DNA of 19,687 nucleotides from Bdellovibrionota bacterium. Lineage in GTDB: Bacteria; Bdellovibrionota; UBA1018; UBA923. Positions 3 to 14,756 of this stretch are shown piece after piece. How positions within the stretch are numbered: the stretch's first letter is position 1; every line of letters begins with the position of its first letter. The stretch spans positions 1 through 19,687 of the forward strand of contig JBFMCE010000075.1 in the NCBI GenBank assembly GCA_040754655.1, in the 5' to 3' direction. The translations under genes and the position numbers were made by a program. The notes below the pieces were generated by a model. It was not told where the DNA came from. It ran no database searches and worked only from the letters and a program-made list of their open reading frames with translations.

Positions 3-98
3 TTGGGAGCGATCACGGAGTTGATGGTGCTCTTGACCGTGACCGGCTTTTTTCTAAGGGCGCTCTCTAAAACAGATACGACGGCGAAACAAATTTGA
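3..98 (+). CDS. C-terminal end of a membrane protein (partial, runs off the 5' edge)
   Basis: Frame 3 reads LGAITELMVLLTVTGFFLRALSKTDTTAKQI-stop (TGA 96-98): a hydrophobic helix plus a polar tail, with the stop abutting the next start. Confidence 0.55.
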   Translation: MGAITELMVLLTVTGFFLRALSKTDTTAKQI

Positions 99-100
99 AT

Positions 101-1111
101 ATGAACTTGAACATGCAACGCGACAACCTCCCTCAGTGGAACAAGAAGTCTCAGGGTTTCTACGAGGTTTGGTATTTGAAATTGAACCTGCCCCCTGCGA
201 ACGGCAAAGCCGGTCCTGCGCTCTGGTTGCGTTTTACAACGCTGAGTTCGCGCACGGGCTTGAAAAAGGTGGCGGAGACCTGGGCGATTTTCTTTGATCC
301 GCTCGCTCCGGGCGGCTCTCAAAAGCTTGCATTGAAGAACACGGCCTCTCCGAGCGCCTATTCTTCGCAAGCCAACGGAACCATTCAAATCGAAGACTGC
401 ACCTTGGGAAGCGGTTTCACATCGGGGTCGGTCGTAAGCCGAGGCCAGCGCATTGAATGGGATCTGAGGTTTGAACCCAACTCGCATACTTTCTTCCATG
501 TGCCGCAGGTTCTGCAGAAGCTTAAACTTACAAAGTCGATCGTCTGCAAGCCAAACATCAGCATCCAATTCAAAGGGCACTTCAAAGTAAATGAAAAGAC
601 CTATGAGTGCGACGACACTCCGGGATGCCAAGGCCACATCTGGGGGCAAAAACACGCGCAGGAATGGGCGTGGTCGCATTGCAATTTCTTTGAAGGATCG
701 GACGCCGTGGTCGAAGCCCTGACTGCCCGGGTGAAGTTTGGAGAGATCGTCACCTCGCCTCGACTCTCTGCCTTGTACTTGCAGTACAAAGGCGAGCGCT
801 TTGAATTCAACAACCTCGTCGATGCTTTCTCGATCAAAAGTGAATACTCGCTCACGAGCTGGAAGTTCTCTGCCGACAAAGGCTCTCTTCGCATACAAGG
901 TGAGATCGCTTGTGACGTCAAAGACCTCGTTGCCCTCACCTATGAAGATACCGACGGCAGCTTTTTGTACTGCAACCACTCAGAGCTCGCTTCGATGAAC
1001 GTGAGCGTTTATTTCAAAGGAAAACTCGACTCAAGCTTGCGATCGCTTCAGACCACCGGGTTTGAAACGGTCTCACGCAAGAAAAGCCCTTATGTCGAGG
1101 TTTTGCTGTAA
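101..1111 (+). CDS. Tocopherol cyclase-like / AttH-CrtC-type beta-barrel protein
   Basis: Motifs GFYEVWYLK, IEWDLRF, GCQGHIWG-x3-AQEWAWSHCN and YEDTDG-x3-YC resemble the tocopherol cyclase family. Start uncertain (TTG 95, ATG 101 or ATG 113). Confidence 0.7.
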   Translation: MNLNMQRDNLPQWNKKSQGFYEVWYLKLNLPPANGKAGPALWLRFTTLSSRTGLKKVAETWAIFFDPLAPGGSQKLALKNTASPSAYSSQANGTIQIEDCTLGSGFTSGSVVSRGQRIEWDLRFEPNSHTFFHVPQVLQKLKLTKSIVCKPNISIQFKGHFKVNEKTYECDDTPGCQGHIWGQKHAQEWAWSHCNFFEGSDAVVEALTARVKFGEIVTSPRLSALYLQYKGERFEFNNLVDAFSIKSEYSLTSWKFSADKGSLRIQGEIACDVKDLVALTYEDTDGSFLYCNHSELASMNVSVYFKGKLDSSLRSLQTTGFETVSRKKSPYVEVLL

Positions 1112-1142
1112 ATCTTTTGTTCTAGCCTTTGACGAAGTAGGG

Positions 1143-1457
1143 CTAAAGTCCCCTAGAAACAGAATTGCAATAACCACTGGTTTGGCGCCCTAGTTGCAAG
1201 AGTGTTGCACTGGACCAGCCTTCAACCACGTCACAAAGATGAGAACGGGTCTTTGCTTTGATACGACCGGGGGCTTTATGAACGACCTCGGCTCGACTCA
1301 TCCCGGTGCCTAAAGAGGCAGCGCTTTCCTGAGTCTGACTTGGTAGAACGAACAGTTTTAAAAACATTCCGCTCAAAACCAAGGAAAAGAATACCAGAGC
1401 GGTGGTCAAAAATATTTGCCGTCTACTCTTGCTCAAATGGGGCTTGGCCTTGCGCAC
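1143..1457 (-). CDS. Small single-pass membrane/exported protein, possibly a Tad accessory or pilin-like protein
   Basis: GTG at 1457 lies just after the TadBC stop with GGGA upstream (alternative ATG 1499). Basic N-terminus, hydrophobic stretch IFLTTALVFFSLVLSGMFLKLFVL, two C-terminal Cys. Confidence 0.5.
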   Translation of the reverse strand: MRKAKPHLSKSRRQIFLTTALVFFSLVLSGMFLKLFVLPSQTQESAASLGTGMSRAEVVHKAPGRIKAKTRSHLCDVVEGWSSATLLQLGRQTSGYCNSVSRGL

Positions 1458-1468
1458 ATCATCCCACG

Positions 1469-2362
1469 TTATATCGAGAGGGTACTCAACTCTGGCCATA
1501 AAGCTCCGATGAAAATGAGAAATACGGCGGGCGTGAAGAAACCACAAAAGACCAGCGAGATCTTCGTTGGCACCAGGGCGAGCTGCTCTTCTTGGCTAGC
1601 CTGTTTTTCATCTTCCAATTGTGCGATAGAAGTTGAAAGAAAATCAGAACCCGGAGCGCCCGTCTGAAGAAGATGCGTTAAGACATTTGAGACCTCAGCA
1701 CTCAACTCAAAACGCTCTGGCCAGACAAATCCCTTGGCCAAACTTCCGTTTGTCTCGACCGAAGCCATCCACTGCATCCATTGCCTTGCGAAGGGTGATG
1801 AAGGGTCTGCTTGCACGCTTGTTTGCACAGCTTTATGCAAATGCACGCCAGCTTCAATTTGCATCCACACGTTCATCATAAAATCAAAGAGCCAAGAACT
1901 CTCGTCGACTTTTTCATCCGTAGCCTTGCGCACAAGAAGGCAAAACGCCGCAAGCCCTATGGACTGAAAGACAGCGCCCCCCAAGCCCCAATAGTTCAGG
2001 GGGACGGTGCCGACCACGGCTGCAACAGCCCAAGGCACCACCAGAGCCAGTGCCCCTTGGAAACCAAATTGGCGCTCAATGACCTTGAGCTTCATCCACC
2101 GCCGTTCTTCGCGAATCACCAAGGGATAGAGCTCTCGCAAAACTTCAGCAACTGGCGCTCCCAGCGGAATCGCCGTACGCAAGGCCACACACAATTGATC
2201 GCACCAACGCAGGCAACGCGGGCTGGGGCGCAAGACCCCTCGCACGGGGACCGAAATGCCCCAACCGCGAAGCCGGGCCAAGACTTCGTTGGTCGAGCCC
2301 CCGCCCAGAAGCAAGGTGCGCATTTGAGAGAGAACAGAGGAAAGTAAAACTTGTTTACCCAT
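1469..2362 (-). CDS. Type II secretion system F-family protein; apparent TadB-TadC fusion
   Basis: Two T2SSF-like halves: GAPVAEVLREL...LKVIERQFGFQGALALVVP plus a TM pair (TadB-like), then QTGAP...EEQLALVPTKISLVFCGFFTPAVFLIFIG (TadC-like C-terminus). ATG 2362 chosen because it lies downstream of the sigma54 motif. Confidence 0.75.
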   Translation of the reverse strand: MGKQVLLSSVLSQMRTLLLGGGSTNEVLARLRGWGISVPVRGVLRPSPRCLRWCDQLCVALRTAIPLGAPVAEVLRELYPLVIREERRWMKLKVIERQFGFQGALALVVPWAVAAVVGTVPLNYWGLGGAVFQSIGLAAFCLLVRKATDEKVDESSWLFDFMMNVWMQIEAGVHLHKAVQTSVQADPSSPFARQWMQWMASVETNGSLAKGFVWPERFELSAEVSNVLTHLLQTGAPGSDFLSTSIAQLEDEKQASQEEQLALVPTKISLVFCGFFTPAVFLIFIGALWPELSTLSI

Positions 2363-2375
2363 GCTCCTAGGCATG

Positions 2376-2392
2376 AGCAAGGCTTGGGCCAA
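2376..2392 (-). promoter_or_regulatory. Putative sigma54 (-24/-12) promoter for the TadBC gene
   Basis: Minus strand TTGGCCCAAGCCTTGCT has exact GG-N10-GC spacing with TGGC and TTGCT, matching the TGGCACG-N4-TTGCW consensus. Confidence 0.65.
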
Positions 2393-2506
2393 AGACAAAA
2401 AGCGCTTTGTCGGCACTTCGCGATCTGCGGTAAGCCCTGCGTTGGGCAGGCTAAGAGAGCAGCTTCAAAAATCTGACTCTGAGAAGCGCCGAGAATATTT
2501 TACGGA

Positions 2507-2528
2507 TTTCAGGAAATGTTTCAGGAAA
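2507..2528. repeat. Tandem 10-bp direct repeat TTTCAGGAAA-tg-TTTCAGGAAA, each unit a TTTC-N2-GAAA dyad; candidate regulator or enhancer site
   Basis: Exact copies at 2507-2516 and 2519-2528 in the divergent intergenic region. Function is inferred. Confidence 0.5.
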
Positions 2529-2602
2529 AGCATTGCCGGGGAAGGATTCGTCTTGGGCAAGAACGGCATCTTGTACAACGTAGGCACGACCTGGGTGTCG
2601 GC

Positions 2603-2631
2603 TTGTCACTTCACCCGGCTGATGCTATTCC
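2603..2631 (+). promoter_or_regulatory. Possible sigma70-type promoter for the TerB-like gene
   Basis: TTGTCA-17 bp-TATTCC with an extended -10 TG; GAGG upstream of ATG 2643. The -10 is imperfect. Confidence 0.3.
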
Positions 2632-2642
2632 TCGAGGCAACG

Positions 2643-3197
2643 ATGAAAAACTTTTTTAATAAACTCTTTGGGCAACTTTCCGGCGAGGACCCTTCGAACC
2701 GAAATCCGGAATATTCTGCCGACCTTGAAAAGCTCACTGTAGCCATGAGCCATCTTCCTGAAAAAGAGGCCATCTATTTGGCTGGGTTTGCTTTATTACT
2801 GGCGCGCGTGGCTCATTTGGACTTTAAAATCAGCGATGACGAACGGCAGCGCATTCAACATGTTTTATTGAGCATCTCTGGGCTCAGCGAGGATCATGCG
2901 GCCTTAGTGACCAACCTCGCGATCGAACGCACCGAACTACATTCGTTAGAAAGCCACATCATTTTTCGACGCCTCAATGAAACGCTTTCTGTTGATCGGA
3001 AGAAAGACCTGATCCGAGGATTGCTGCGTGTGGCTAGCGTTGAAGATATTACTGAACACGAGAGCGATGAAATCGGCTTTATCGCCAAAGCCCTCAATCT
3101 CTCGCGCCAAATTTTTTTGGAATTGCGATCAGAGTTCCGAGATCATATCGCGATTCTTAAAAGTCTTCCCGATCCTTCCAAGAAGAAGAACCCTTAG
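2643..3197 (+). CDS. TerB-family (tellurite resistance / DjlA N-terminal-like) protein
   Basis: LLARVAHLDFKISDDER and LLRVASVEDITEHE-x5-IAKALNL form the duplicated TerB pattern. Start at MKNFF with a GAGG RBS; no J-domain. Confidence 0.8.
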   Translation: MKNFFNKLFGQLSGEDPSNRNPEYSADLEKLTVAMSHLPEKEAIYLAGFALLLARVAHLDFKISDDERQRIQHVLLSISGLSEDHAALVTNLAIERTELHSLESHIIFRRLNETLSVDRKKDLIRGLLRVASVEDITEHESDEIGFIAKALNLSRQIFLELRSEFRDHIAILKSLPDPSKKKNP

Positions 3198-3249
3198 CTT
3201 CAGCGCTCTTAAGACGTCACTCAGTGCCTCGAGCTTTTCAACCAAAGCC

Positions 3250-4077
3250 TTACCTTGTCACTTTAAAAAGCTGAACATCGAGGTGGTAAACTTCTTCGGG
3301 TTCAACGCCGCTTTCAGGCGTGCAAGTGAGGGTTTCATTGACTGCCTTCACAAAATCTTTGACAAGTTTTTTGAACTCGCGAAACTTCGCAGGGGTCGTG
3401 CTCACTGTCACAAACCCGTACTCGCGCTCTGCGATCGGGTCATCGATGCGCTCTCGTGAGAGTTCGATCATCTCGCGGTGAAACTCTCGCACCAAAAGGT
3501 TCTCGACCTCATCGTCGGTTCTCACCTTATACGACTGGGGAACGAGCCTTCTGTTCTGGTCACGTTTGAGAAGGCCACTTTCTTCAAGAACCTTGAGCGC
3601 ATGAGAAAGTTCGCCGGGGGTGGCCCTGCCCCCTAGGCGTTTTGAGATCCACTTGGGATCTTCTTGAAACCCGCGAGTGGTGACAAGCTCAAACAAGACC
3701 GGGTAATACCATTTCGCAAAAAGGCTCTGGTGCTCAACCGCCGAAAGAGCTTTAGCCCTAGTGCGCGAACTCGCAACCGAAAGTTTTCTCAGATAGTGCG
3801 ACTTGTCTGATGAACTTGAAGCCTGGCAGAAGTAGACGAGGTTCTCGAAGTACTCTGCTTCTCGGTCAGACAGTCCCAACCCGCGCACAAACTTCGGAAG
3901 TGTCTTGTGCGTGAGATTGCGCTTGCCCTCCATAACAAGCTTCAAGTGCATCGGTGATGCAAGACCTGCTTTTGAGGTGAAGAAGCGGTGCGAGAACTGG
4001 CGCCGCTTCTTCTTAGCCTCATCATAGTAATCGCGCAGGTACTGCCTGTAGTCGCGATACTCAAAGATCGGTCTCAT
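3250..4077 (-). CDS. TIGR02147 family protein (N-terminal HTH plus DUF4423), putative transcriptional regulator
   Basis: IFEYRDYRQYLRDYY...FSHRFF-x2-KAGLASP-x2-LKLVMEGKRNL, WYY-x3-EL, FH-x-EMIEL, and the C-terminal VYHLDVQLF. Confidence 0.9.
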   Translation of the reverse strand: MRPIFEYRDYRQYLRDYYDEAKKKRRQFSHRFFTSKAGLASPMHLKLVMEGKRNLTHKTLPKFVRGLGLSDREAEYFENLVYFCQASSSSDKSHYLRKLSVASSRTRAKALSAVEHQSLFAKWYYPVLFELVTTRGFQEDPKWISKRLGGRATPGELSHALKVLEESGLLKRDQNRRLVPQSYKVRTDDEVENLLVREFHREMIELSRERIDDPIAEREYGFVTVSTTPAKFREFKKLVKDFVKAVNETLTCTPESGVEPEEVYHLDVQLFKVTR

Positions 4078-6248
4078 CGAGCAAAGCAGTCCTTTGCGAG
4101 ATCAATGGCTTCGTCTGTCGTGTCTTCGGTATCATCGATCAACTGAGGGCTATCGATCTTAAGCTCACGTGTGCCAGGTGACCACACCGCTCTTCCATTC
4201 GCGTTTCTTGAAGAATCATCAAAAGATCTTTCTGAAAAGATCTGATTCTCAAGAAAGTAAGCCAGCACTTGTGGCTGGGTCTCGAGTAACTGACGTGGGA
4301 TGCGCAAAGTGAGCTCGTAGCCATTCAAGCCATAATGATGACAATCACCATTATACCTGCTGTGTTTAACGCACATCGACTTAGGCGAATGTACCCACTC
4401 AAGTTGGCTCGAAGACCATTCAAGCTTGAAACTGAAAGGCTCGGTGCCATACATCCTCTCACCATCAAATACCCCTCCACGTGTAACGCATGCGATCTTT
4501 GCCTTGAGACGTTGGGCGCCATTGAGGTATTTCATCAAAACATCTCTTACTTTTCTTGCAAGCACGAGATCAGCCGATGAAAGCGTCATATTTTCGACAC
4601 CAAACAAACCACGCAATTCATCTCGAATAGATGCAAGATGATACTCTTGCGTCTTCAAGGGATTGATCCGCATGTATTTTTCACGCAGCATTGCCTCAGT
4701 GACTTGAGTGGCAGACTCGATCGACGGAAGTTTGATCAACGGAGAGGTTAAAACGTCTTCTGGTTCCCCGCGATATCGCTTCTGTTCTTTCTCAAATCCC
4801 ATGAAGGCAATGCCGAGGGATGGGTCTAATTCTATAGAGAACGTCAATCCCCTAACCGCTGCAACCACCAGCGGATAGGCATCAGGATCAGACTTTTGAA
4901 CGACTCCCAATGCGCGTTTGAATGCCTCCGGAATTTGCAAGAGCTTGGCAAGATCACTCTCATCCAAGAAAGGAAGAAGCTTTGATAGAAGCCCATTTTT
5001 CGGAAGCACCGCCGCCCACTTGGCAGGTGCCATCAATTGAGCTGCTTTTTCATCAAATATCTCGGCTTGCTGGCCTCGGCCTATCTTCGGCGGAAGGATC
5101 TCGGTCAAGACGGCATGACGACGCCCTTCAAGGTCCGTGACGATTTGTTTTTTATACCTGAACGCCACTTTCAATGTGATCGGTTTTTCAGACTGCAGCC
5201 GTTTTTCGATGTACCGATTCAAAATCTCGTATTCACCAGCGCTCATTACCTCATCGTAAATGAGGTCAATGCTTGAGTTGAATTCAAGAAAGGGAATGTT
5301 GCCAAATACCTTCGTATCGACCTGAAAAACATAGTCAAAATCACTATCACCCGACCTTCTTTCTGAGCGGTTGATGCTAAAATCCCTCAGGCCATGGTAC
5401 CAGACATCTTGCTTGCGCAGCTCGATATCGGTAACCAGAACAAAGGTGCGTGATCCGAGATCATACTTTTCACCCGGAATTTCAACTTGGCCAAAAACAG
5501 AGATGTTCCATTTCTTCAAGATCGCCAAGAAACTGTCCGTGGTCAGCTTGCCCGTAAGAAAATCATAGAGCGTTGAAACCCAGCTCTCAATGAATCGCTC
5601 GTCCGTGTGAAAAACCTTGAGAGAAGGCAAGCGGTGCGCTTGTTCGTGCAAGACAAGTTTAGTCACCTCTTCTGCCCCGCCGTCAGCGGCTTTTTCCATC
5701 ATCTTGATCACTTCAGTGAAATAAACCACAGTTTTCGTGCTTCTTTGGGTGTAAGCAGCGACAAGAGCACGATCAAGGTCTTTTGCCACCAGGTTGTACG
5801 GTGTGATTGAAATTCCCAGGGCGTTTTGGCCAGAAGTCACCGCGTATTCTTCAGTCACCGTTGTCTGAGCCTTTCCGTTCGCAGCCGTCATTGTGGTCTT
5901 TGAAAGCTTATTTAAGACCATGTTGAGTTCTTTTTGAGTGTCACCATAGGTAACGATCTCATTGCTCTCAATGATATTCACTCCGGCCAAGTCATGGAGC
6001 ATTTCGTATTTGAGCGCCAGGGGCAGAGCCGATCTCTCGATGAGCGCTTTGATTTCATCATGTCGCGGATGGCGGGTCGTGAACTTGGTCTGAATCAAGT
6101 CACCCTTTTTATTGCGCGGCCTAAAAATTTCGGTATTGCCCCCTTCGACGCCCGCAAGAGGCGGTGCCGCCCAAAGAGAATGAATGGTGAACGCTAAAAG
6201 TAAAATCGAATAGATCAAACTTTGAAATGACCCAACCAGTTTCTTCAT
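4074..6248 (-). CDS. Large secreted hypothetical protein with a HExxH zinc-metalloprotease motif (about 724 aa)
   Basis: AGGAG RBS before MKKLV; signal-peptide-like LIYSILLLAFTIHSLWA; GVEGGN after the predicted cleavage site; LVLHEQAHRL (HExxH at 5634-5648); its stop overlaps the next ATG (ATGA). Confidence 0.75.
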   Translation of the reverse strand: MKKLVGSFQSLIYSILLLAFTIHSLWAAPPLAGVEGGNTEIFRPRNKKGDLIQTKFTTRHPRHDEIKALIERSALPLALKYEMLHDLAGVNIIESNEIVTYGDTQKELNMVLNKLSKTTMTAANGKAQTTVTEEYAVTSGQNALGISITPYNLVAKDLDRALVAAYTQRSTKTVVYFTEVIKMMEKAADGGAEEVTKLVLHEQAHRLPSLKVFHTDERFIESWVSTLYDFLTGKLTTDSFLAILKKWNISVFGQVEIPGEKYDLGSRTFVLVTDIELRKQDVWYHGLRDFSINRSERRSGDSDFDYVFQVDTKVFGNIPFLEFNSSIDLIYDEVMSAGEYEILNRYIEKRLQSEKPITLKVAFRYKKQIVTDLEGRRHAVLTEILPPKIGRGQQAEIFDEKAAQLMAPAKWAAVLPKNGLLSKLLPFLDESDLAKLLQIPEAFKRALGVVQKSDPDAYPLVVAAVRGLTFSIELDPSLGIAFMGFEKEQKRYRGEPEDVLTSPLIKLPSIESATQVTEAMLREKYMRINPLKTQEYHLASIRDELRGLFGVENMTLSSADLVLARKVRDVLMKYLNGAQRLKAKIACVTRGGVFDGERMYGTEPFSFKLEWSSSQLEWVHSPKSMCVKHSRYNGDCHHYGLNGYELTLRIPRQLLETQPQVLAYFLENQIFSERSFDDSSRNANGRAVWSPGTRELKIDSPQLIDDTEDTTDEAIDLAKDCFAR

Positions 6249-6340
6249 CTGAAATGAACTCCTATGGAATTGAATATCGAAATGACTCATAGCCCCATAA
6301 GGAGCGCTTTCACAAGCCCTCAAAAGAAGATTTTTATTAC

Positions 6341-6354
6341 TTTTGTATACAAAA
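6341..6354. promoter_or_regulatory. Perfect 14-bp palindrome TTTTGTATACAAAA, candidate operator
   Basis: Exact dyad in an AT-rich intergenic region about 95-105 bp upstream of the HExxH gene. ATTACTTT occurs at 6336 and 6374. Confidence 0.5.
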
Positions 6355-6438
6355 ACAAACTTAAGCTTTTGAAATTACTTTATAAATTTGTGCATCCATC
6401 ATTTTATGAAGTAGAAAAGTATTCATCCTAAGAAGACG

Positions 6439-6468
6439 AAAAACCATGCGCTCGCATGAAGAGCACGC
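6439..6468 (-). terminator. Possible intrinsic terminator of the DUF4911-tldD-yjbQ-MFS operon
   Basis: Minus strand GTGCTC-ttcatgc-GAGCGC stem followed by ATGGTTTTT, about 60 nt past the stop codon. The stem is weak. Confidence 0.3.
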
Positions 6469-6526
6469 GATTAAAGCCTTCTTTCAAATAGGTTTTTCAT
6501 TCTAACGGTTAGATGGGCCGAATTTT

Positions 6527-8782
6527 TTACCGGCTGGCCTGATGCTCAGCCGCACCAAAATACTTGCGCAAGATGCGATCATATCGGCCTTTGAGATTGG
6601 CCGCGATCCTCCTAAGCAAAAAGTATTCATTGTACGGACGATCATCTGTCACGACAATCGCTGGATTGGAATGCATTCGGGTTTCGAGCACCAACTCTTT
6701 GGCAAGCACGCGCTTAAAGATGGCTTCCAAAGTTTCATGCGAATTCCACTCGAGCATGTCTGCTCGAGCAGCTTGCGGTATGCGAGAGATGAGCTGCTCA
6801 AGGGTGGGATCACCAAGAGGTTGTTGCGACGCAATGAAGTGAAAGCCCCAATCGTCCATCGACGAATAGGCGCGGACGTAAGGAAACGAGTTCACCAAAG
6901 ACCGAATGATGGCGTTCAAGGTTTTTTCTTCACCAAATGGAAACCACTGCTGCAAAATCCCGTCAGGTTTTAACCGCGATTTTACAAGCGAGTAAAACTC
7001 TTCCGAGTAAAGCAGGCTCGACGCGGCGGCCTCAACCGGAGGAGGAGGATCAAGTGTGATCACGTCAAACTTCTCTGAAGTGCGCTGAAGAAATCTGCGG
7101 CCATCGTCAACAACGATTTGCCCGCGAGGGTTCGAGGTGACCTTACCTGCGTCTTCATGAAAATAACTGAACATGGTTTTGACGCTCGGAATAAGCTCAA
7201 CGGCTGTTGCTTTGATGTCCCAAGTTAAAAGCGATCTAAAAGTAGTTCCCATCCCAAAACAAATCACAAGCGCCGACTCTGGCTTTCGCTCACGATAAGC
7301 CAAGGGAAAATGCGCCATGAACTTGGTCACCGGAGTAAGCTCAGTGATGCCCACCCCATTCACATAGAGCATCTTTTTTCGGCCAGAACCGTTGGCCACC
7401 ACAGTGGCTGAATGGTCGCGCATCACGCGATGCTCAGGCCCGAACGCCATGAACGCATCTTCATAAGACTTCGCGATACCCAAACAAAGAACAAATCCCA
7501 GAACGCTGGCCACAACAATGGCAAGCCTATGCTTGAGCGACTCTCTGCGACTTGCGATCAAGTAGAGCAAGAAGAAGGGAGAGGTTAAAATTATCATCGA
7601 ACCGAGCACTCCAAAGGCCGGCAGCAAAAAATAAGTCGCAGCCAAGGGCCCCAAGATGCAACCTACGATGTTCAATGCATAAGCGTAACCTGCGCGTTTG
7701 GGCGAGCCCTGTGAGTACTGATCAATGAGCTTGGGCGTAAGATATCCCAATATCGCGCAAAACGGGAAAATGCTGGCAAGCGCTCCGAGGCTGCCAAGAC
7801 CTAAACGAGGATCACTTAAAAGCATTGAACCAAAGCTTGCAAGGCCTGCCAAGCCGATGGAAGTCGAAGTGGAAAGGCCTTTTGAGCCGCGGGCAAGCTC
7901 GCGACGGTAAAGCTGGGATCCTGCCCAAGTCGCCGCAAGATAAGTAAACAACAACCACGCAAAAGAGTAGATCGTGGTTCTCAAAACCGGCGTGAAATTT
8001 CGCGTCCAGATGATCTCAAGGCTCATCGAGGCAAATCCTGTAAGCACGAGAGAAACCAATAAGACCGCGAACGAAGAAGGCGATATTGCGGAAGAAGCGG
8101 GAAGGGCGTCGCTATTGACTGTGGAGCCGAGGATAACGGTTGGAGCGTTCTTCGCTTTTCGAGCAAGTTTAAGCGCTATGAGAGCGATGATGAGATTTCC
8201 TATGGCCGCGATGAACAACGTGTTTCGAAAACCAAGCAGCTCGATGAACAAAACCGCGCTCGACACACTGCCTGCCATCGCGCCGAGAACGTTCGACAAG
8301 TAGAGAAAACTAAAGCTCTTCGTACTGCGCGCACTGTCGTAGCGTTTGATGAACGACATCATGAACGGGAAGGTCGTGCCCATTGCCACGCACCAAGGCA
8401 AAAGTGTAGCCGAAATCAGAAGTGCCGACCAAAAGAGATAGGAAAAGGAATCCATCTCTCCGGTGGACAGCAGCTTTTTAGCGCCAAATGCAAAAAGTGA
8501 GGGAACAAAAAATGCGCCTAATCCGATCAAAAGTTCGGCGCCAACGTAGAAGTGGGCGGCAGTGGAGCGAGTGCGTTCTACCCACCCATCAATGAACTTT
8601 CCCCCAAGCCAAGAGCCCAAACAAAGCCCAAGCATGAAAACAGAAACGACAATCGACATTACCGGTGTAATCACCCCAAAATGGGTGAAGGCAAGCCGCA
8701 TCCAGACGATTTGATAAACAAGCGAGCAAAAACCCGAAAGAAAAAAGACCGTGAAAATGGCGCGTTTATTTTTTTCAAACAT
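6527..8782 (-). CDS. Fused MFS-like membrane domain / spermidine-synthase-like SAM-binding domain protein
   Basis: FFLSGFCSLVYQIVW and its repeat TGFASMSLEIIWTR, many TM helices, then ALVICFGMGTT, AVELIP, DDGRRFL, FDVITLDPPPP and LYSEEFY-x6-LKPDG. ATG 8782 preferred over TTG 8836. Confidence 0.9.
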   Translation of the reverse strand: MFEKNKRAIFTVFFLSGFCSLVYQIVWMRLAFTHFGVITPVMSIVVSVFMLGLCLGSWLGGKFIDGWVERTRSTAAHFYVGAELLIGLGAFFVPSLFAFGAKKLLSTGEMDSFSYLFWSALLISATLLPWCVAMGTTFPFMMSFIKRYDSARSTKSFSFLYLSNVLGAMAGSVSSAVLFIELLGFRNTLFIAAIGNLIIALIALKLARKAKNAPTVILGSTVNSDALPASSAISPSSFAVLLVSLVLTGFASMSLEIIWTRNFTPVLRTTIYSFAWLLFTYLAATWAGSQLYRRELARGSKGLSTSTSIGLAGLASFGSMLLSDPRLGLGSLGALASIFPFCAILGYLTPKLIDQYSQGSPKRAGYAYALNIVGCILGPLAATYFLLPAFGVLGSMIILTSPFFLLYLIASRRESLKHRLAIVVASVLGFVLCLGIAKSYEDAFMAFGPEHRVMRDHSATVVANGSGRKKMLYVNGVGITELTPVTKFMAHFPLAYRERKPESALVICFGMGTTFRSLLTWDIKATAVELIPSVKTMFSYFHEDAGKVTSNPRGQIVVDDGRRFLQRTSEKFDVITLDPPPPVEAAASSLLYSEEFYSLVKSRLKPDGILQQWFPFGEEKTLNAIIRSLVNSFPYVRAYSSMDDWGFHFIASQQPLGDPTLEQLISRIPQAARADMLEWNSHETLEAIFKRVLAKELVLETRMHSNPAIVVTDDRPYNEYFLLRRIAANLKGRYDRILRKYFGAAEHQASR

Positions 8783-8838
8783 GGGGGCGAGCTTCTCAGA
8801 AAATAAGAGATCAGACAACGGGTCAATTAGGGCCAATT

Positions 8839-8919
8839 CCCGTAAACCGGGCCACCGGATCGGTGACGGAGCCCGAAACGGAATCGGGCACCGTTAACTG
8901 CTAACGGCTAACCGATTCC
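8839..8919 (-). repeat. Structured intergenic element with nested and competing hairpins and 3 heptamer repeats
   Basis: Inverted repeats 8880-8887/8912-8919, 8891-8896/8902-8907, 8871-8876/8884-8889, 8853-8857/8861-8865 and 8839-8842/8848-8851. TAACTGC TAACGGC TAACCGA at 8895-8915. Confidence 0.5.
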
Positions 8920-9332
8920 TACTCCCCCATCACCTTAACGATCACCCTTTTTGCCCTTTGACCATCGAACTCAGCGTAATAAATCTGCTGCCAAGTCCCA
9001 AGATCGAGTCGTCCTTTAGTGATCGGAACGATCACCTGATGCCCAATAAGCAAGTTCTTCAAATGAGCATCGGCATTGTCTTCACCTGTCTGATGGTGGC
9101 GATAGTCGGGGCGCGCTGGCGCAAGCTTCTCTAACCACTGTTGAATGTCATGAATGAGACCATCTTCAGCGTCATTGATGTAAACTCCGGCGGTAATATG
9201 CATCGCTGAAACCAAGACCATGCCTTCTTGCACCTGAGAGCGCTCAAGCACATCGGCCACCTCGTCGGTGATATTGACGAACTCCATGCGCTTTCGCGTG
9301 TTGAATGTCTTGTACTCGGTGAATGCTTTCAT
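8919..9332 (-). CDS. yjbQ: YjbQ/UPF0047 family protein (secondary thiamine-phosphate synthase)
   Basis: [13 protein letters not shown]-x2[24 protein letters not shown]. Confidence 0.93.
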
Positions 9333-9350
9333 GTGGATCAGCGCCTCTTA

Positions 9351-10769
9351 CTACCAGTATTTCGACATCGGCACTTCGCCGCCAACGATGATCTCAGGAA
9401 TTCGAATCGTGGGTTGCGCGTCAGTAACAGGCGCGCGTTGCCCGTCTTTTCCGCAAGTCCCGATCGCAAATCCAAGGTCAGTGCCCACCTTGTCTACTTT
9501 CTGCAAGACCTCAGGACCATTGCCAGTCAACGTTGCACCTTTGACCGCGGGTCCGATCTCCCCATTTTGGATCAGATATCCTTCAGTCACGGCAAAAACG
9601 AAATCACCTGAAACAGTGTTGACCTGCCCTCCCCCCATCGACTTCACATAAAGGCCATGCTTGGTAGAGCGCAAAATGGATTCTGGATCGTCTTTGCCCG
9701 AAGCAAGGTAGGTGTTCGTCATGCGTACAATGGGTTTATGGCGATAGCTTTCCCGCCGTCCGTTTCCAGTAAGCGAAAGCCCAAACTTGGTATTGCTCAA
9801 ACGGTCGACCATGTATGATTTGAGTATGCCGTTTTCGACCAGCACGTTGCGTTTTGACGGAGTTCCTTCGTCATCAACAGCGTAACTACCCCGCCTGCCT
9901 GGCATGGTTCCGTCATCAATAATCGTCACAAGCGGACTTGCGACTTTTTGCCCGACCTTATCGCGGTAAACTGAAAGGCCATTGCACGCCAGATCGGCTT
10001 CAAGTCCGTGTCCCACGGCTTCGTGAACCATCGTTCCGCCTGCCTCAGCGGCAAGCACGACTGGCATGGTGCCCGATGGGGCAGGTTTGGCCGAAAGCAA
10101 AAGATCCAGTCTTCGAGCAGCTTCTTCGACGATCTTCTCTGGCGGAATCTCGTCAAAAAGTTCAAGGCCAGTGTATCCCCCTTGAGCCTCATAGGCTGTT
10201 TGCATTTGACCCTCGCGCTCGCCCACGAGGTTCACGTAATACGTGAGGTACTGCTTTTTATCAGTGGCGTGTTGGCCAAGTGAATTTGCGATTTCGATCT
10301 GCCTTAAGGTCTCGATATAGCCCACTGTGGCTTGCTTCAGGTCTTTGCTACAAGACCAGGCAGCCTTGTTCCCTCGCTCAACAAAGCCTAGTTTTTGTTT
10401 CAGGCTGAGCTTCGAAGGATCTTTTTCGATAGTCTGCTCATACCCGGCATGAACCGCCGAAAGAGCAACGTTTGCTTGATTTGAAATTTTCCCAGACACT
10501 ACTTTGCTCAGGGTTTCCGCAAGCTCAAAGAGCCCGGCCTCATTGCGTTCGGTCGTATAGCCATAGACGGATTGATTGCCATAGATGATCCGAAGGCCCA
10601 CGCCGGCATCCTGGCCTGAACTGATGCGATCTAGCTTGTTTGCTTCATAAAAAAGCTGATGCGCCACTGAGTTTTCATAGAACAGCTCCGCGAACTCACC
10701 TCCGTTTTGAAGGGCTTTCTTAAAGATGCGTTCCAGGTTTAAAGAAGAGAGCATTGTGCTTCCTTTCAT
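9351..10769 (-). CDS. tldD: TldD metalloprotease subunit (TldD/PmbA family)
   Basis: GVGLRI, HEAVGHGLEAD metal motif, TGNGRRESY, RMTNT, and GTCGKDGQ carrying the conserved Cys of the catalytic subunit. Confidence 0.93.
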   Translation of the reverse strand: MKGSTMLSSLNLERIFKKALQNGGEFAELFYENSVAHQLFYEANKLDRISSGQDAGVGLRIIYGNQSVYGYTTERNEAGLFELAETLSKVVSGKISNQANVALSAVHAGYEQTIEKDPSKLSLKQKLGFVERGNKAAWSCSKDLKQATVGYIETLRQIEIANSLGQHATDKKQYLTYYVNLVGEREGQMQTAYEAQGGYTGLELFDEIPPEKIVEEAARRLDLLLSAKPAPSGTMPVVLAAEAGGTMVHEAVGHGLEADLACNGLSVYRDKVGQKVASPLVTIIDDGTMPGRRGSYAVDDEGTPSKRNVLVENGILKSYMVDRLSNTKFGLSLTGNGRRESYRHKPIVRMTNTYLASGKDDPESILRSTKHGLYVKSMGGGQVNTVSGDFVFAVTEGYLIQNGEIGPAVKGATLTGNGPEVLQKVDKVGTDLGFAIGTCGKDGQRAPVTDAQPTIRIPEIIVGGEVPMSKYW

Positions 10770-11038
10770 GAGGAGAGTTCGAGAACAGGAAATTTTTTCC
10801 TCAGGCCCTCAAGGACCTGATCCATTTCTTGAGTAAATCCATTCGGAATAAAGAGACTCAAATCGCGATAGTCTTGGCCTGGTTTTTCATCAGGCAATGT
10901 AGAATAACTTACCATGCCTTCAAGAGATTCAAAGATTGCATATACGAAAGCAGAGTCACGAGCAAAAACTCGAATAGTCTTGCGCACTGCACCAGAGCTT
11001 GTTCCTTGAGCATTTTCATCAGTAACTAGACAGTTCAT
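10766..11038 (-). CDS. DUF4911-like small protein
   Basis: DSAFVYAIFESLEGMVSYSTL resembles the DUF4911 core; ATGA overlap with tldD. Confidence 0.7.
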   Translation of the reverse strand: MNCLVTDENAQGTSSGAVRKTIRVFARDSAFVYAIFESLEGMVSYSTLPDEKPGQDYRDLSLFIPNGFTQEMDQVLEGLRKKFPVLELSS

Positions 11039-11098
11039 GCATTTCTATATACACGGGTTTTCAATTGACTCGCAACCCAGGGGATTTATCCTTAAGAT
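11039..11098. promoter_or_regulatory. Compact divergent sigma70-type promoter region
   Basis: Plus strand: TTGACT (11065-11070)-16 bp-TATCCT (11087-11092)-6 nt-ATG. Minus strand: TTGCGA (11075-11070)-18 bp-TATATA (11051-11046)-7 nt-ATG. No SD sequence on either side. Confidence 0.45.
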
Positions 11099-11923
11099 AT
11101 GGCCAAGCCTAACTCTTTGCATTTTTTACTACTTTTTCCTCTGTTTGTCGCGGCGTGCAGCGGCAGAAAAGTAGATCAGAGCTTACCTGCTGAAGAGACC
11201 GATCAACAACGCATTGAAAATCTTACTTCCGCGCTCTCTCGAGCTCAATCACGGATCGAAGAGTTGGATGCGAGGCTTTCCGCTCTCACAGACAAGGTCG
11301 ACGCCAATCGATTAGCGGTCGACAATATCACGGGCAATAAACCTTTGCAGACCCAAGCCGTGGGTTCGGCCAAGGGCTCTGAGAAAGATGCCGAAGAATT
11401 GGCGCCTTCAGCCGCTGATTTCTCGACGCTTGATCCGGCGACGACAGATTTCACGAAAGCCATGAACCTCTTCAAGTCAGGCAAGTACGCAGACTCTGAA
11501 TTGGCATTCAATCATTTCACGGAGCGTTTTCCTGAGCATATCCTAGCAGGATCGGCCCAATTCTATGCTGGCGAAGCCTATTTCATGATGGGAGAATACA
11601 AACTCGCCATCAATGAGTATGGCAAAGTGCTTTCGTCATTTTCTACGAGCCCGCGCGTCGCTTCGGCCATGGTCAGGCTGAGCCACTGCTATGGCGCCTC
11701 GGGAAACAAGGAAGAAGCTGCAAGAACCATGACCCTTGCTCAAGAACTTTATCAAGGCAATCCTTCGCTAGATTGGGTTTCGCCTGCACAAGCTTCTGGC
11801 AGGACGTCGCATGAAAGCGATGCCAAGTCAGCGCTGCAAGCCAGCCCGATCGAACCACCAAAGCAACCACAACATTCTGATGACGCAAAGATTGATGACC
11901 TTGAGGAAGTAGGTACGCACTAG
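11099..11923 (+). CDS. cpoB: CpoB/YbgF-like TPR lipoprotein
   Basis: Lipobox-like VAAC, coiled coil, then TPRs (AMNLFKSGKY...F-x2-F-x3-FPEH-x2-AGSAQFYAGEAYF). Confidence 0.75.
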   Translation: MAKPNSLHFLLLFPLFVAACSGRKVDQSLPAEETDQQRIENLTSALSRAQSRIEELDARLSALTDKVDANRLAVDNITGNKPLQTQAVGSAKGSEKDAEELAPSAADFSTLDPATTDFTKAMNLFKSGKYADSELAFNHFTERFPEHILAGSAQFYAGEAYFMMGEYKLAINEYGKVLSSFSTSPRVASAMVRLSHCYGASGNKEEAARTMTLAQELYQGNPSLDWVSPAQASGRTSHESDAKSALQASPIEPPKQPQHSDDAKIDDLEEVGTH

Positions 11924-12013
11924 GCCTAAGCATTTGCGACTTGAAAGATTGAAGTTCATGCCTCACATGAAGTGGGCTGAACCGAGACTTTTCGGACTAC
12001 GGAGGGACCGAAA

Positions 12014-13765
12014 GTGTGGAAGAAGCTTTTTTACATAGGACTGTGTTGCTGGACGGCCGTCTCTGCTCAAGCTGAAACCGAGGAACAGAGGCTTGTGCGA
12101 CTCTCGCAACGTTTGAAACCCATCAGCCAAGACCAGTGGAATGAAATCGCTGGCCCGCGCCTCCAAGATGCTTATGACATTCAACCTGGAGACAGCCTTT
12201 GGAATGTGAGCAAGCGCCTCTTTGGCAACGCCTACTATTGGCCGAAAGTATGGTCGCTCAACGCTGGCTCGATTGATAACCCTCATGTGATCACGCCGGG
12301 GCAGAAACTGGTATTCACGCCAGGATCTTCCGAAGGAATGCCCCAGCTCTCACCTCAGCCTAACAATCCCATTCAGACCGTTGCAGCGACGACGACCACC
12401 GAACCCGGCGCAACGTCTCGAACACTTCACGAATACGACAAGGTGCCCAAAGACCAATGGTCACCCATAGATGCTTCCAAGCAAGCAGTGGCCCAAAACT
12501 ACGACGACTATGGACTCGATAAAGAACTTCGCATTCGGATCCCTTCACGTTTCGCGTTTCGCGTTCCGGCGATCGCAAACGAATCTACAATACCCTACCT
12601 CGGTGAAATCGCGGGTTCCAGAAGAGAAGGCCAAGGGCTCAGCCAACACGACACGGTTTTCCTGAAATCGAACAGCCAAGATCTTCAAGTGGGGCTTACT
12701 TATAGCATCTTAGGCGAGCCTGAGTTCATTCGTGAACGCAAATCAGACCGTTCAGGCTACATCTATCATTCCGTGGGCGAGTTGAAGGTCATCGGAGTGA
12801 AAGACGAGCTTTACGTCGGCATCATCACGAAAGCCTATGACGTGATCAAACGAGGTGACCGCCTGTACCCATTGTTGCCGCTCATCACCGACGTGAAGCC
12901 GGTGGCCTCAAAACTCGCGCTTGAGGCTTTGGTTCTTTTCAGCAACAGTCACAACACTCGAAACACGGCGCAGTTTAGATTTGCGCACCTTGACCGAGGA
13001 CTGCAAGACGGCGTCGAGATCGGAAACGTGTTTCGGCTCTATGATTACAGGGATCCCATCACCGATGAAAAAATTACTGACAGCGACTTCTTGATCAATG
13101 CAGACGCCATCGTAGTTCACGCGACCTCGGAATTTTCAACCGCCCTTATCTTGCGCTCACGAAACACCTTTACTCGCGGAGACTTCGGCGTTCTTCTCAC
13201 CGATGTTTCAGACCTCGAGCGCAAGATCCTCGACAGCTCGCATGACCTGGGAAACAGCGACAACCGTTCAGCGGAAGACCGCGAACTGGATGAGCTGGAT
13301 CGACTCGATAAAACGACAGGTGAAGGTTTAGGTGAACAAGAACAGCTTGAGATCAAAGAACTTGACCACTGGGATAAAACCAAGGATCTACAGACCGATC
13401 CAAACTCTGAACCGACGCTGGAAGGAGTTCCTGACGTGCCCACCGACGCTCAGCCCGAACCTTTGCCACCGGAAGAGCCGCCGCCAGCTGCCTCTCCAGA
13501 GGAAGAACTGATGGACTCTGGCGAGAACGCTTCCCCGACCGCTCAAGAAGCCGCGCCTTCGCAACAAGCGGAACAACCTACGGCTGAGAGCGCTCCCGCT
13601 TCAGATGCTGAGCTCGACGGTTCAGGTGAAGTTCAGTCGCAGGCGCCTTTAGAAGAACCTGCGGTCACTCTTCCTGAGACGCCTCCGCCTGCGTCGAGCG
13701 CACCGACCGAACCGTCGCTCCCTCAAGAGCTTGAAGAAATCAATCCAGGCCCAATCGAGCCTTGA
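12014..13765 (+). CDS. Secreted LysM peptidoglycan-binding protein with a long acidic Pro-rich tail
   Basis: GGAGG RBS, GTG start, signal peptide ending AQA; LysM YDIQPGDSLWNVSKRLFGNAYYWPKVWSLN-x3-IDNPHVITPGQKL; LDRG-x2-DGV-x2-G; E/P/A/S-rich C-terminus. Confidence 0.88.
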   Translation: MWKKLFYIGLCCWTAVSAQAETEEQRLVRLSQRLKPISQDQWNEIAGPRLQDAYDIQPGDSLWNVSKRLFGNAYYWPKVWSLNAGSIDNPHVITPGQKLVFTPGSSEGMPQLSPQPNNPIQTVAATTTTEPGATSRTLHEYDKVPKDQWSPIDASKQAVAQNYDDYGLDKELRIRIPSRFAFRVPAIANESTIPYLGEIAGSRREGQGLSQHDTVFLKSNSQDLQVGLTYSILGEPEFIRERKSDRSGYIYHSVGELKVIGVKDELYVGIITKAYDVIKRGDRLYPLLPLITDVKPVASKLALEALVLFSNSHNTRNTAQFRFAHLDRGLQDGVEIGNVFRLYDYRDPITDEKITDSDFLINADAIVVHATSEFSTALILRSRNTFTRGDFGVLLTDVSDLERKILDSSHDLGNSDNRSAEDRELDELDRLDKTTGEGLGEQEQLEIKELDHWDKTKDLQTDPNSEPTLEGVPDVPTDAQPEPLPPEEPPPAASPEEELMDSGENASPTAQEAAPSQQAEQPTAESAPASDAELDGSGEVQSQAPLEEPAVTLPETPPPASSAPTEPSLPQELEEINPGPIEP

Positions 13766-13826
13766 AGCATGCGAGGGGTAAAAGTGAGCCTGATAAAGTA
13801 TAAGCCCAAATCGTTCACTTAACCGA

Positions 13827-13843
13827 TGGGCATGATCTTTGCT
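13827..13843 (+). promoter_or_regulatory. Putative sigma54 (-24/-12) promoter for dprA
   Basis: TGGGCATGATCTTTGCT: GG (13829-13830)-N10-GC (13841-13842), with GGCATG and TTGCT. Confidence 0.6.
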
Positions 13844-13859
13844 GACGCTTTCACCGCAT

Positions 13860-14756
13860 ATGGATCATGCCCTTTTTCTTTCCCACTTGCCCTACTGGTA
13901 TTCGCACTGCAAAGCGCTTGACGTGATCAAAGCATTTGCTGCCGCACCCGACAGAAGACAAGTTGAGGATCTGCTGAAATCTTCTGACAGGCTAGATCGT
14001 GAAAAAGTTCAAAAATCGCTCGAGATCGCTTACAAAGAGACTGACGCCACGATCTCTGAGCTCGAAGGATCTCAAATCACCTTCACAAGTTACTGGTCTA
14101 AAGAATATCCCGAACGCCTGCGTTCGATACCGCATCCGCCCTGGGGTCTTTTCTCTATTGGAACTCTTCCAAAACAAGCCGCCACTCTCGCTGTTGTCGG
14201 AACAAGAAAGCCCAACGCCTACGGACGTGAATTGATCGGCAGGCTCTTGCCCGCCATAAATGTTCGGCCTCTCCAAGTCGTAAGCGGGCTTGCTTACGGT
14301 ATTGACGCCCTAGCTCACTTTTATTCCTGCGAAGCCCGGCTCCCAAACTTCGCAGTGCTAGGCACTGGCCTTCAGCACATCTATCCCTCTGAACATTTTG
14401 ACCTTGCCCAACGCATCGTTGATCAAGGCGGAGGATTGATCAGCGAATATCCGCCGTCAACGACTGCGACGCCAGGAAACTTTCCTCGAAGAAACCGAAT
14501 CATCTCAGGCCTTGCCCACGCAGTTTGGATCGTTCAAGGAGGGAAGCGTTCCGGAAGTCTGCACACAGCCAAACATGCGCTAGATCAAAACCGGGAAATT
14601 GGCGCCACTCCCGGTGATATCTTTAGTGAACTCTCGCAAGCCTCGCATTGTCTTCTGTTGGCTGGCGCACAGCCCGTGGTGGGCGCGATGGACCTTGATT
14701 TGATGCTCATACGCAGTTTTGTTGCGACACCCAATTTGACTCATCGCAACAACTGA
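13860..14756 (+). CDS. dprA: DNA-processing protein DprA (Smf)
   Basis: YPERLRSIPHPP, AVVGTR, VVSGLAYGIDALAH, AVLGTG, ISEYP, FPRRNRIISGL, SGSLHTA. ATG 13860 preferred over TTG 13839, which lies inside the sigma54 motif. Confidence 0.95.
   Translation: MDHALFLSHLPYWYSHCKALDVIKAFAAAPDRRQVEDLLKSSDRLDREKVQKSLEIAYKETDATISELEGSQITFTSYWSKEYPERLRSIPHPPWGLFSIGTLPKQAATLAVVGTRKPNAYGRELIGRLLPAINVRPLQVVSGLAYGIDALAHFYSCEARLPNFAVLGTGLQHIYPSEHFDLAQRIVDQGGGLISEYPPSTTATPGNFPRRNRIISGLAHAVWIVQGGKRSGSLHTAKHALDQNREIGATPGDIFSELSQASHCLLLAGAQPVVGAMDLDLMLIRSFVATPNLTHRNN

Follow-up and report, generated by a model that had tools for sequence, protein, structure and literature searches.

The closest described counterparts of the elements reported here are the sigma-54 (RpoN) promoters located in Escherichia coli by chromatin immunoprecipitation sequencing (ChIP-seq), in which an invariant GG and an invariant TGC stand at an exact spacing and in sense orientation (excerpted text of PMC4591121). 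In Ralstonia solanacearum a sigma-54 element likewise precedes a type IV filament gene, and natural competence needs RpoN through that gene, pilA, which belongs to a complete type IVa pilus and has its element 47 nt upstream of the start; the excerpts of that study do not name dprA as an RpoN target (PMC4371752). Here, we describe a 19,687-nt stretch of DNA (contig JBFMCE010000075.1; the whole stretch is referred to as the window) in which two sigma-54-type -24/-12 elements, M1 and M2, are found directly upstream of an orphan, platform-like gene with a T2SSF domain and of dprA, respectively. T2SSF-type platform proteins are also a component of the transformation machines based on Tad/Flp pili, which are reportedly used for DNA uptake in Micrococcus luteus and Liberibacter crescens. 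The tad loci of both organisms are said to be complete, whereas the 19.7 kb described here contain a single T2SSF-domain gene and none of its partners.

Judged on their sequence and position, we are inclined to regard M1 and M2 as genuine sigma-54 promoter elements of an unusual, start-codon-proximal design. Both 17-mers had been reported in an initial annotation of the window and were recovered on the same strands and at the same positions (Table 1). Each contains GG-N10-GC together with TTGCT and, across the 11 specified positions of the consensus TGGCAC-N5-TTGCW, M1 has one mismatch and M2 has two. The 17 open reading frames (ORFs) of the window were scanned against Pfam and NCBIfam, and 15 credible genes, all with a positive codon score, were accepted by family match or codon score. 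Relative to these genes both elements are non-coding, sense-oriented and upstream of a gene, with M2 located in the 94-nt gap between the LysM gene and dprA. That they lie upstream of coding sequence follows from the start codons ATG 2362 and ATG 13860, which are supported by alignments.

Both strands were scored with a weight matrix tallied from the 42 intergenic, sense-oriented E. coli sigma-54 ChIP-seq sites in Table 1 of PMC4591121. M2 and M1, which the initial annotation had singled out as the clearest motifs of intergenic regions, obtained the highest and second highest scores; a third site of near-equal score (14.31 bits) had been overlooked. The E. coli site model places all three scores near its 30th percentile. 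Per window, 0.25 hits of 14.3 bits or more are expected with independent bases and 0.36 with a first-order Markov model; three were obtained, a number reached in 1% of 500 simulated windows, and 61 kb from five unrelated loci contained one such hit. Non-coding DNA amounts to 1587 nt, i.e., 8% of the window, and holds all three hits, where 0.02-0.03 would be expected (Poisson P about 1e-6 to 4e-6). The fifth-ranked hit and every hit below it are intragenic. When the columns of the matrix were permuted, only one of 2000 permuted matrices had its top three hits all in non-coding DNA, and a third-best score of at least 14.31 bits was reached by 0.2% of them. Matrices with a shortened or lengthened spacer scored up to 17.1 bits, and each of the 12 hits listed for them was intragenic. 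A high score alone can therefore be chance, since matrices of the wrong spacing score as high inside genes; the right spacing combined with a non-coding location is not. In genomes with sigma-54, well-placed matches are mostly real promoters according to the excerpts of Francke et al. (PMC3162934).

The start site of a sigma-54 promoter was taken to lie 12 nt 3' of the -12 C, i.e., 19 bp from the motif centre, following the excerpted text of PMC4591121. The -12 C is 14 nt (M1) and 17 nt (M2) from the A of the ATG, and the predicted +1 falls at 2365 and 13854, 3 and 6 nt ahead of the respective start codons, as the initial annotation had placed it. No usable Shine-Dalgarno sequence had been seen in that annotation; an AGGAG does precede ATG 2362, but at a distance of 1 nt it is too close for Shine-Dalgarno function. 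For two of the three top sites, no more than 10 nt separate the predicted +1 from a start codon of the correct strand, an outcome with P = 0.0065 for random non-coding placement. In the mechanism that we propose, sigma-54 holoenzyme would bind M1 and M2 as a closed complex and would fire only when an enhancer-binding ATPase is active. The resulting mRNAs would be nearly leaderless, and their translation would not involve a Shine-Dalgarno sequence, which is missing from many genes of this organism. About 8 of the 15 starts in the window, including that of topA, have no Shine-Dalgarno-like sequence. Upstream of the YbgF-like gene, the sequence TTGACT-16-TATCCT ends 6 nt before the ATG, which suggests that the mRNA of this gene is leaderless, and the 60 nt (11039-11098) separating its start codon from that of the divergent 90-aa ORF leave little room for leaders. 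With this one clear case, leaders that are short or missing may be the norm in the host organism.

DprA was identified by PF02481 (215.9 bits) and by the TIGR00732 equivalog (200.6 against a cut-off of 191.15), and is without the C-terminal winged-helix domain carried by many of the listed homologs. ATG 13860 shares its alignment column with the starts of 20 of 23 homologs (45-52% identity), at the beginning of the conserved MDxxLxLSHLP; this alignment leaves out P0024 and P0027 (low coverage) and everything below P0028. The form of DprA in the protein collection has 305 aa and starts at TTG 13839, inside M2. The alignment favours ATG 13860 over this start, and the 305-aa form is probably seven codons too long. 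The position of dprA two genes before topA is probably a common neighbourhood.

For the T2SSF-domain gene, ATG 2362 falls in the start column of 12 of 20 family members and within 3 columns of the start in 17 of the 20, and the nearest homolog (45% identity) aligns its own Met1 with the Met of ATG 2362. GTG 2416 and ATG 2374 were considered as starts and ruled out by the alignments. The family alignment leaves out P0125, P0131, P0141, P0143, P0145 and P0147-P0151 (fragments, multi-stretch or weak). The family is rare, with 30 cluster representatives at E <=0.001 among 1.84 billion in an exhaustive search and one relative besides the query itself in a word-indexed search.

PF00482 is matched at 46.5-48.3 bits (cut-off 25.2) and also by 17 of the 21 aligned family members. 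The AlphaFold2 model is all-helical with a predicted local distance difference test (pLDDT) score of 91.8, and a structural match in the Atlas joins the protein to a T2SSF cluster with a template modelling (TM) score of 0.75. Foldseek returned no match to the model at E <=0.001; the best match in the PDB, a weak one (E 0.05, TM 0.39), was to a chain of 3jc8, a model of the type IVa pilus machine, and a profile search of the PDB with the family gave nothing better than E = 0.37. The protein shares its domain and an all-helical membrane fold with TadB/TadC and PilC/GspF, and its length of approximately 300 aa is that of a Tad platform protein such as TadB/TadC; it differs from them in having no NCBIfam name, no paired platform gene and no ATPase neighbour. 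The gene is flanked by the divergent TerB gene on one side and by a 357-nt non-coding spacer on the other, and no pilin-like small ORF adjoins it. The product is therefore a single platform-type protein of TadB/TadC size. The motifs do precede a platform-type gene and dprA, as had been described, but there is one T2SSF gene and no tadB/tadC pair, and labels such as 'tadBC' or 'minimal Tad pilus' exceed the data. Within this gene, CTGGCGTGCATTTGCA (1836-1851, minus strand) scores 17.1 bits with the spacer reduced by one (GG-N9-GC), with two further hits for a spacer increased by one nearby (1810-1839, plus strand); the CTGGCGTGCATTTGCA match is taken as chance because its spacing is wrong.

No upstream motif common to all three sites exceeded shuffled controls. 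The divergent region between the T2SSF and TerB genes contains a tandem near-palindrome, TTTCAGGAAA, in two copies 12 nt apart from start to start, which is a candidate regulator or enhancer site. Activator sequences of sigma-54 promoters usually lie about 80-150 bp upstream. The pair spans 115-136 nt upstream of M1 and is 115 nt from the TerB ATG, and because it is equidistant it is not assignable to either gene. TTTCNNGAAA occurs five times in the window against 1.35 expected, and the tandem pair is confined to this region. Upstream of dprA and of the third site no copy of TTTCAGGAAA was found, and there are no inverted or direct repeats upstream of M2. Nothing but the sigma factor connects M1 and M2. 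Use of the same sigma factor does not amount to co-regulation, as sigma-54 promoters depend individually on enhancer-binding proteins of their own. Most simply, M1 and M2 are two separate sigma-54 promoters, accompanied by the third site.

The third site lies in the non-coding spacer between two convergent genes and is directed towards the T2SSF gene from its 3' side, with a predicted start near 1209. A 134-aa ORF (1143-1547, minus strand) was considered as a partner gene and rejected, as none of its 18 candidate relatives was homologous and its coding score was negative. Sigma-54-dependent small RNAs are known, the Qrr RNAs of Vibrio being an example. In E. coli, glmY provides a sigma-54 site that has no protein gene, as is the case here, and the predicted start coincides with the glmY start (distance 1; excerpted text of PMC4591121). 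Unlike the sigma-54 small RNAs, the third site has no match to Rfam and no clear terminator, and the folds downstream of it are not significant (z-scores of -1.43 and -0.02). Judging from its sequence context, it could be the source of a small or antisense RNA or a silent binding site.

A number of observations weigh against M1 and M2 being promoters of this kind. Among 41 protein genes of E. coli the predicted leaders have a minimum of 18 nt and a median of 45 (table of PMC4591121), none being shorter than 18 nt, against 3 and 6 nt here. The usual leader, tens of nt in length and with a ribosome-binding site, is not predicted for either gene. With a leader of 3-6 nt an mRNA is not leaderless in the strict sense, yet has no room for a Shine-Dalgarno sequence, and E. 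coli translates mRNAs with such leaders poorly. Each element also has a rare base, i.e., C instead of the usual A at position 6 of M1 (C in 3 of 42 E. coli sites) and G instead of the usual T at position 2 of M2 (G in 1 of 42). The matrix is derived from E. coli and not from the lineage of the host, a concern to be weighed against the high conservation of the DNA-binding residues of sigma-54 across bacteria (excerpts of PMC3162934); moreover, it was applied only after the motifs had been pointed out, and the score threshold was chosen once the hits were known. Simple counts show no excess, with 165 occurrences of GG-N10-GC against 165.6 expected and nine matches to the consensus with <=2 mismatches against 11.1 expected, although these crude counts are not decisive because they weight every position alike. 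There is no gene for the third site to drive, none of the 17 ORFs in the 19.7-kb window matches the sigma-54 activator family (PF00158), and rpoN is not seen within the same window. Finally, the TerB frame is open for 94 codons upstream of its likely start at 2643 (2361-2642, plus strand), with a codon score of 0.064 that is between coding and non-coding; the case is ambiguous, and if TerB started at 2361, M1 and the T2SSF start would overlap coding DNA head-to-head on the opposite strand.

The crude counts and the post hoc choice of matrix and threshold would be accommodated if the matches had arisen by chance, or as a by-product of base composition near starts, with the genes being transcribed from sigma-70-type promoters or by read-through. 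The 14.9-17.1 bits that off-spacing matrices reach inside genes agree with this, as does TGATAAAGT (13791-13799), readable by eye and with no tool hit as an extended -10 upstream of dprA. We nevertheless consider such an origin quite unlikely, given the confinement of the top three hits to 1587 nt of non-coding DNA and the rarity of equal results among the permuted matrices. A hint in the same direction is provided by the DprA homolog P0011 (47% identity), which has a 14-residue N-terminal extension before an internal Met. Back-translated with free synonymous choice, this extension could specify a site scoring as much as 18.8 bits, with its -12 C 13 nt before the internal Met, and at least 18 bits is attained in 2e-4 of 141,507 control windows from other stored proteins, with 29 windows tested in the extension. 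The hint comes from one protein, whose true start is uncertain and whose internal Met precedes the usual start column by 4 residues, and it shows only that the peptide is compatible with a sigma-54 site. A different explanation is that the sites bind sigma-54 holoenzyme without being productive, a stable closed complex on the start codon region or the initial transcribed bases acting as a roadblock or competitor for transcripts started upstream, or the sites being silent. Those transcripts could be LysM read-through into dprA, with no plus-strand terminator-like site from the LysM stop to dprA, or could start from the sigma-70-like CTGAAA-16-TAAAAT upstream of the T2SSF gene. In E. coli most sigma-54-bound sites appear transcriptionally inactive, and sigma-54 can repress where its site overlaps another promoter (excerpted text of PMC4591121). 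Such closeness to the ATG (<=6 nt) falls outside the range seen for promoters of E. coli, and this, as well as a third site that drives no gene, would be less surprising for non-productive binding. We regard this as unlikely all the same, as sigma-70-like sites are no more frequent in the window than chance predicts (11 against 11.9 expected) and placement on the same strand at two start codons fits a promoter as well. To our knowledge, roadblocks by sigma-54 closed complexes are rarely documented.

A broader proposal, made in the initial annotation, is that of a single regulon under sigma-54 and one enhancer-binding protein, in which a minimal Tad-type pilus and DprA take up DNA, perhaps from prey. 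Its foundation, the sigma-54 nature of M1 and M2, is supported by score, rank, non-coding position and the spacing controls, and in both genes a probable sigma-54 element does adjoin the ATG, an unusual place that they share. Without its activator a sigma-54 promoter stays off, in keeping with the way dprA expression is induced in known competence regulons, and the role of RpoN in Ralstonia competence and the reported use of Tad/Flp pili for DNA uptake are precedents for parts of the scheme. The steps beyond this fared less well. A single shared regulon finds no counterpart in a common upstream motif, and the TTTCAGGAAA pair is restricted to the T2SSF/TerB region. A Tad pilus combines its tadB/tadC pair with a CpaF/TadA ATPase, an Flp pilin, a prepilin peptidase and, in diderms, a secretin. 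The Pfam and NCBIfam scan of the 17 ORFs in the 19.7-kb window found no pilus ATPase, pilin, prepilin peptidase or secretin, leaving the T2SSF gene on its own and with no adjacent partner of the kind that makes up the tadB/tadC pair of Tad systems. For a DNA-uptake programme, no com gene other than dprA was found among these ORFs, ComEC and ComEA included. Of the genes at which a competence regulon would have a common regulator site (comEC, comEA, comF, pilus genes, dprA, ssb), the window contains only dprA. Uptake of prey DNA is unsupported, and a predatory host is hinted at by one result, i.e., that the nearest Atlas feature cluster of the T2SSF protein is commonest in Bdellovibrionota. As far as we know, dprA is almost universal and is also present in bacteria never seen to transform. 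Transformation genes in general are nearly ubiquitous (excerpts of PMC6744872), which counts against the regulon, as does the lack of any gene downstream of the equally good third site. On this evidence we find the regulon very unlikely. More speculative still, and in our view highly improbable as a whole, is a scheme in which sigma-54 promoters of an uncultured lineage, possibly Bdellovibrionota, abut start codons and give activator-gated leaderless or near-leaderless mRNAs, with one enhancer-binding protein co-inducing dprA and T2SSF-dependent DNA uptake and with an antisense or small RNA from the third site tuning the platform gene.

The features of the window are compiled in Table 1. No tRNA genes were found in the window, nor any Rfam matches at E up to 1. 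The 749-aa gene and the DUF4423/TIGR02147 gene overlap by 4 nt at the start of the latter and, because of this overlap, are probably co-transcribed. Relatives of the 769-aa fused protein were found at only five loci of metagenome-assembled genomes in a scan of a species-representative genome set (42-51% identity). They belong to Nitrospinota, Chitinispirillaceae, Chitinivibrionales, Elusimicrobiota and Endomicrobium, which is a patchy distribution. Useful synteny was absent from these five loci in other phyla, of which 10-kb flanks meant to cover both promoters were inspected.

Table 1 Genes, sigma-54-type matches and other features of the 19,687-nt window
Feature	Position	Strand	Remarks
Tocopherol-cyclase-like gene	95-1111	+	
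Non-coding spacer between convergent genes	1112-1468		357 nt; codon score negative in every frame
Third sigma-54-type site, TTGGCGCCCTAGTTGCA	1182-1198	+	14.31 bits, rank 3; no downstream gene
Rank 4 matrix hit	1193-1209	+	12.39 bits; overlaps rank 3
T2SSF-domain gene, orphan	1469-2362	-	PF00482; 297 aa, inner-membrane
T2SSF/TerB divergent region	2363-2642		Also sigma-70-like CTGAAA-16-TAAAAT on minus strand, 2524-2497
Sigma-54-type -24/-12 element M1, TTGGCCCAAGCCTTGCT	2392-2376	-	14.48 bits, rank 2; non-coding
Tandem near-palindrome TTTCAGGAAA, two copies	2507-2528		12 nt start to start; candidate regulator/enhancer site
TerB-domain gene	2643-3197	+	
DUF4423/TIGR02147 gene	3250-4077	-	
Protein of 724-749 aa	4074-6248 (to 6323 for 749-aa form)	-	No Pfam/NCBIfam match
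Fused membrane / spermidine-synthase-like protein	6527-8836	-	769 aa
Rank 5 matrix hit	6646-6662	+	10.98 bits; inside gene
yjbQ	8919-9332	-	
tldD	9351-10769	-	
90-aa ORF	10766-11038	-	
YbgF-like TPR protein	11099-11923	+	
LysM protein	12014-13765	+	583 aa
Sigma-54-type -24/-12 element M2, TGGGCATGATCTTTGCT	13827-13843	+	14.72 bits, rank 1; non-coding
dprA, short form	13860-14756	+	298 aa; PF02481, TIGR00732; start codon from homolog alignment
Protein of 526 aa	14806-16386	+	No Pfam/NCBIfam match
topA	16423-18831	+	TIGR01051, 788.8 bits; two genes downstream of dprA
Protein of 252 aa	18913-19671	-	No Pfam/NCBIfam match

When placed beside the described systems, M1 and M2 agree with the E. coli promoters in their invariant bases, spacing, score range and orientation, and differ from them in their 3- and 6-nt leaders, in belonging to another organism and in being known from sequence alone. 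The literature matches listed for this locus include none that links dprA to RpoN, and the excerpts of the sole listed work containing dprA draw no such link. The main text of two surveys of sigma-54 regulons (PMC12316311 and PMC3162934) contains no occurrence of dprA, competence or Bdellovibrio, and nothing relevant to competence or RpoN in Bdellovibrio is among the matches listed. Similarly, no title among those matches concerns leaderless mRNAs driven by sigma-54, and a start-site paper on Sinorhizobium meliloti links neither subject to the other in its excerpts.

The promoters proposed here are a lead obtained purely by computation on a single window of 19.7 kb. If they are real, sigma-54 would control dprA strictly and in an activator-gated manner in this organism, and sigma-54 promoters with leaders of 3-6 nt would, unusually, couple a tightly closed promoter to translation independent of a Shine-Dalgarno sequence. 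This would be relevant to the way in which competence-type genes are induced beyond model organisms.

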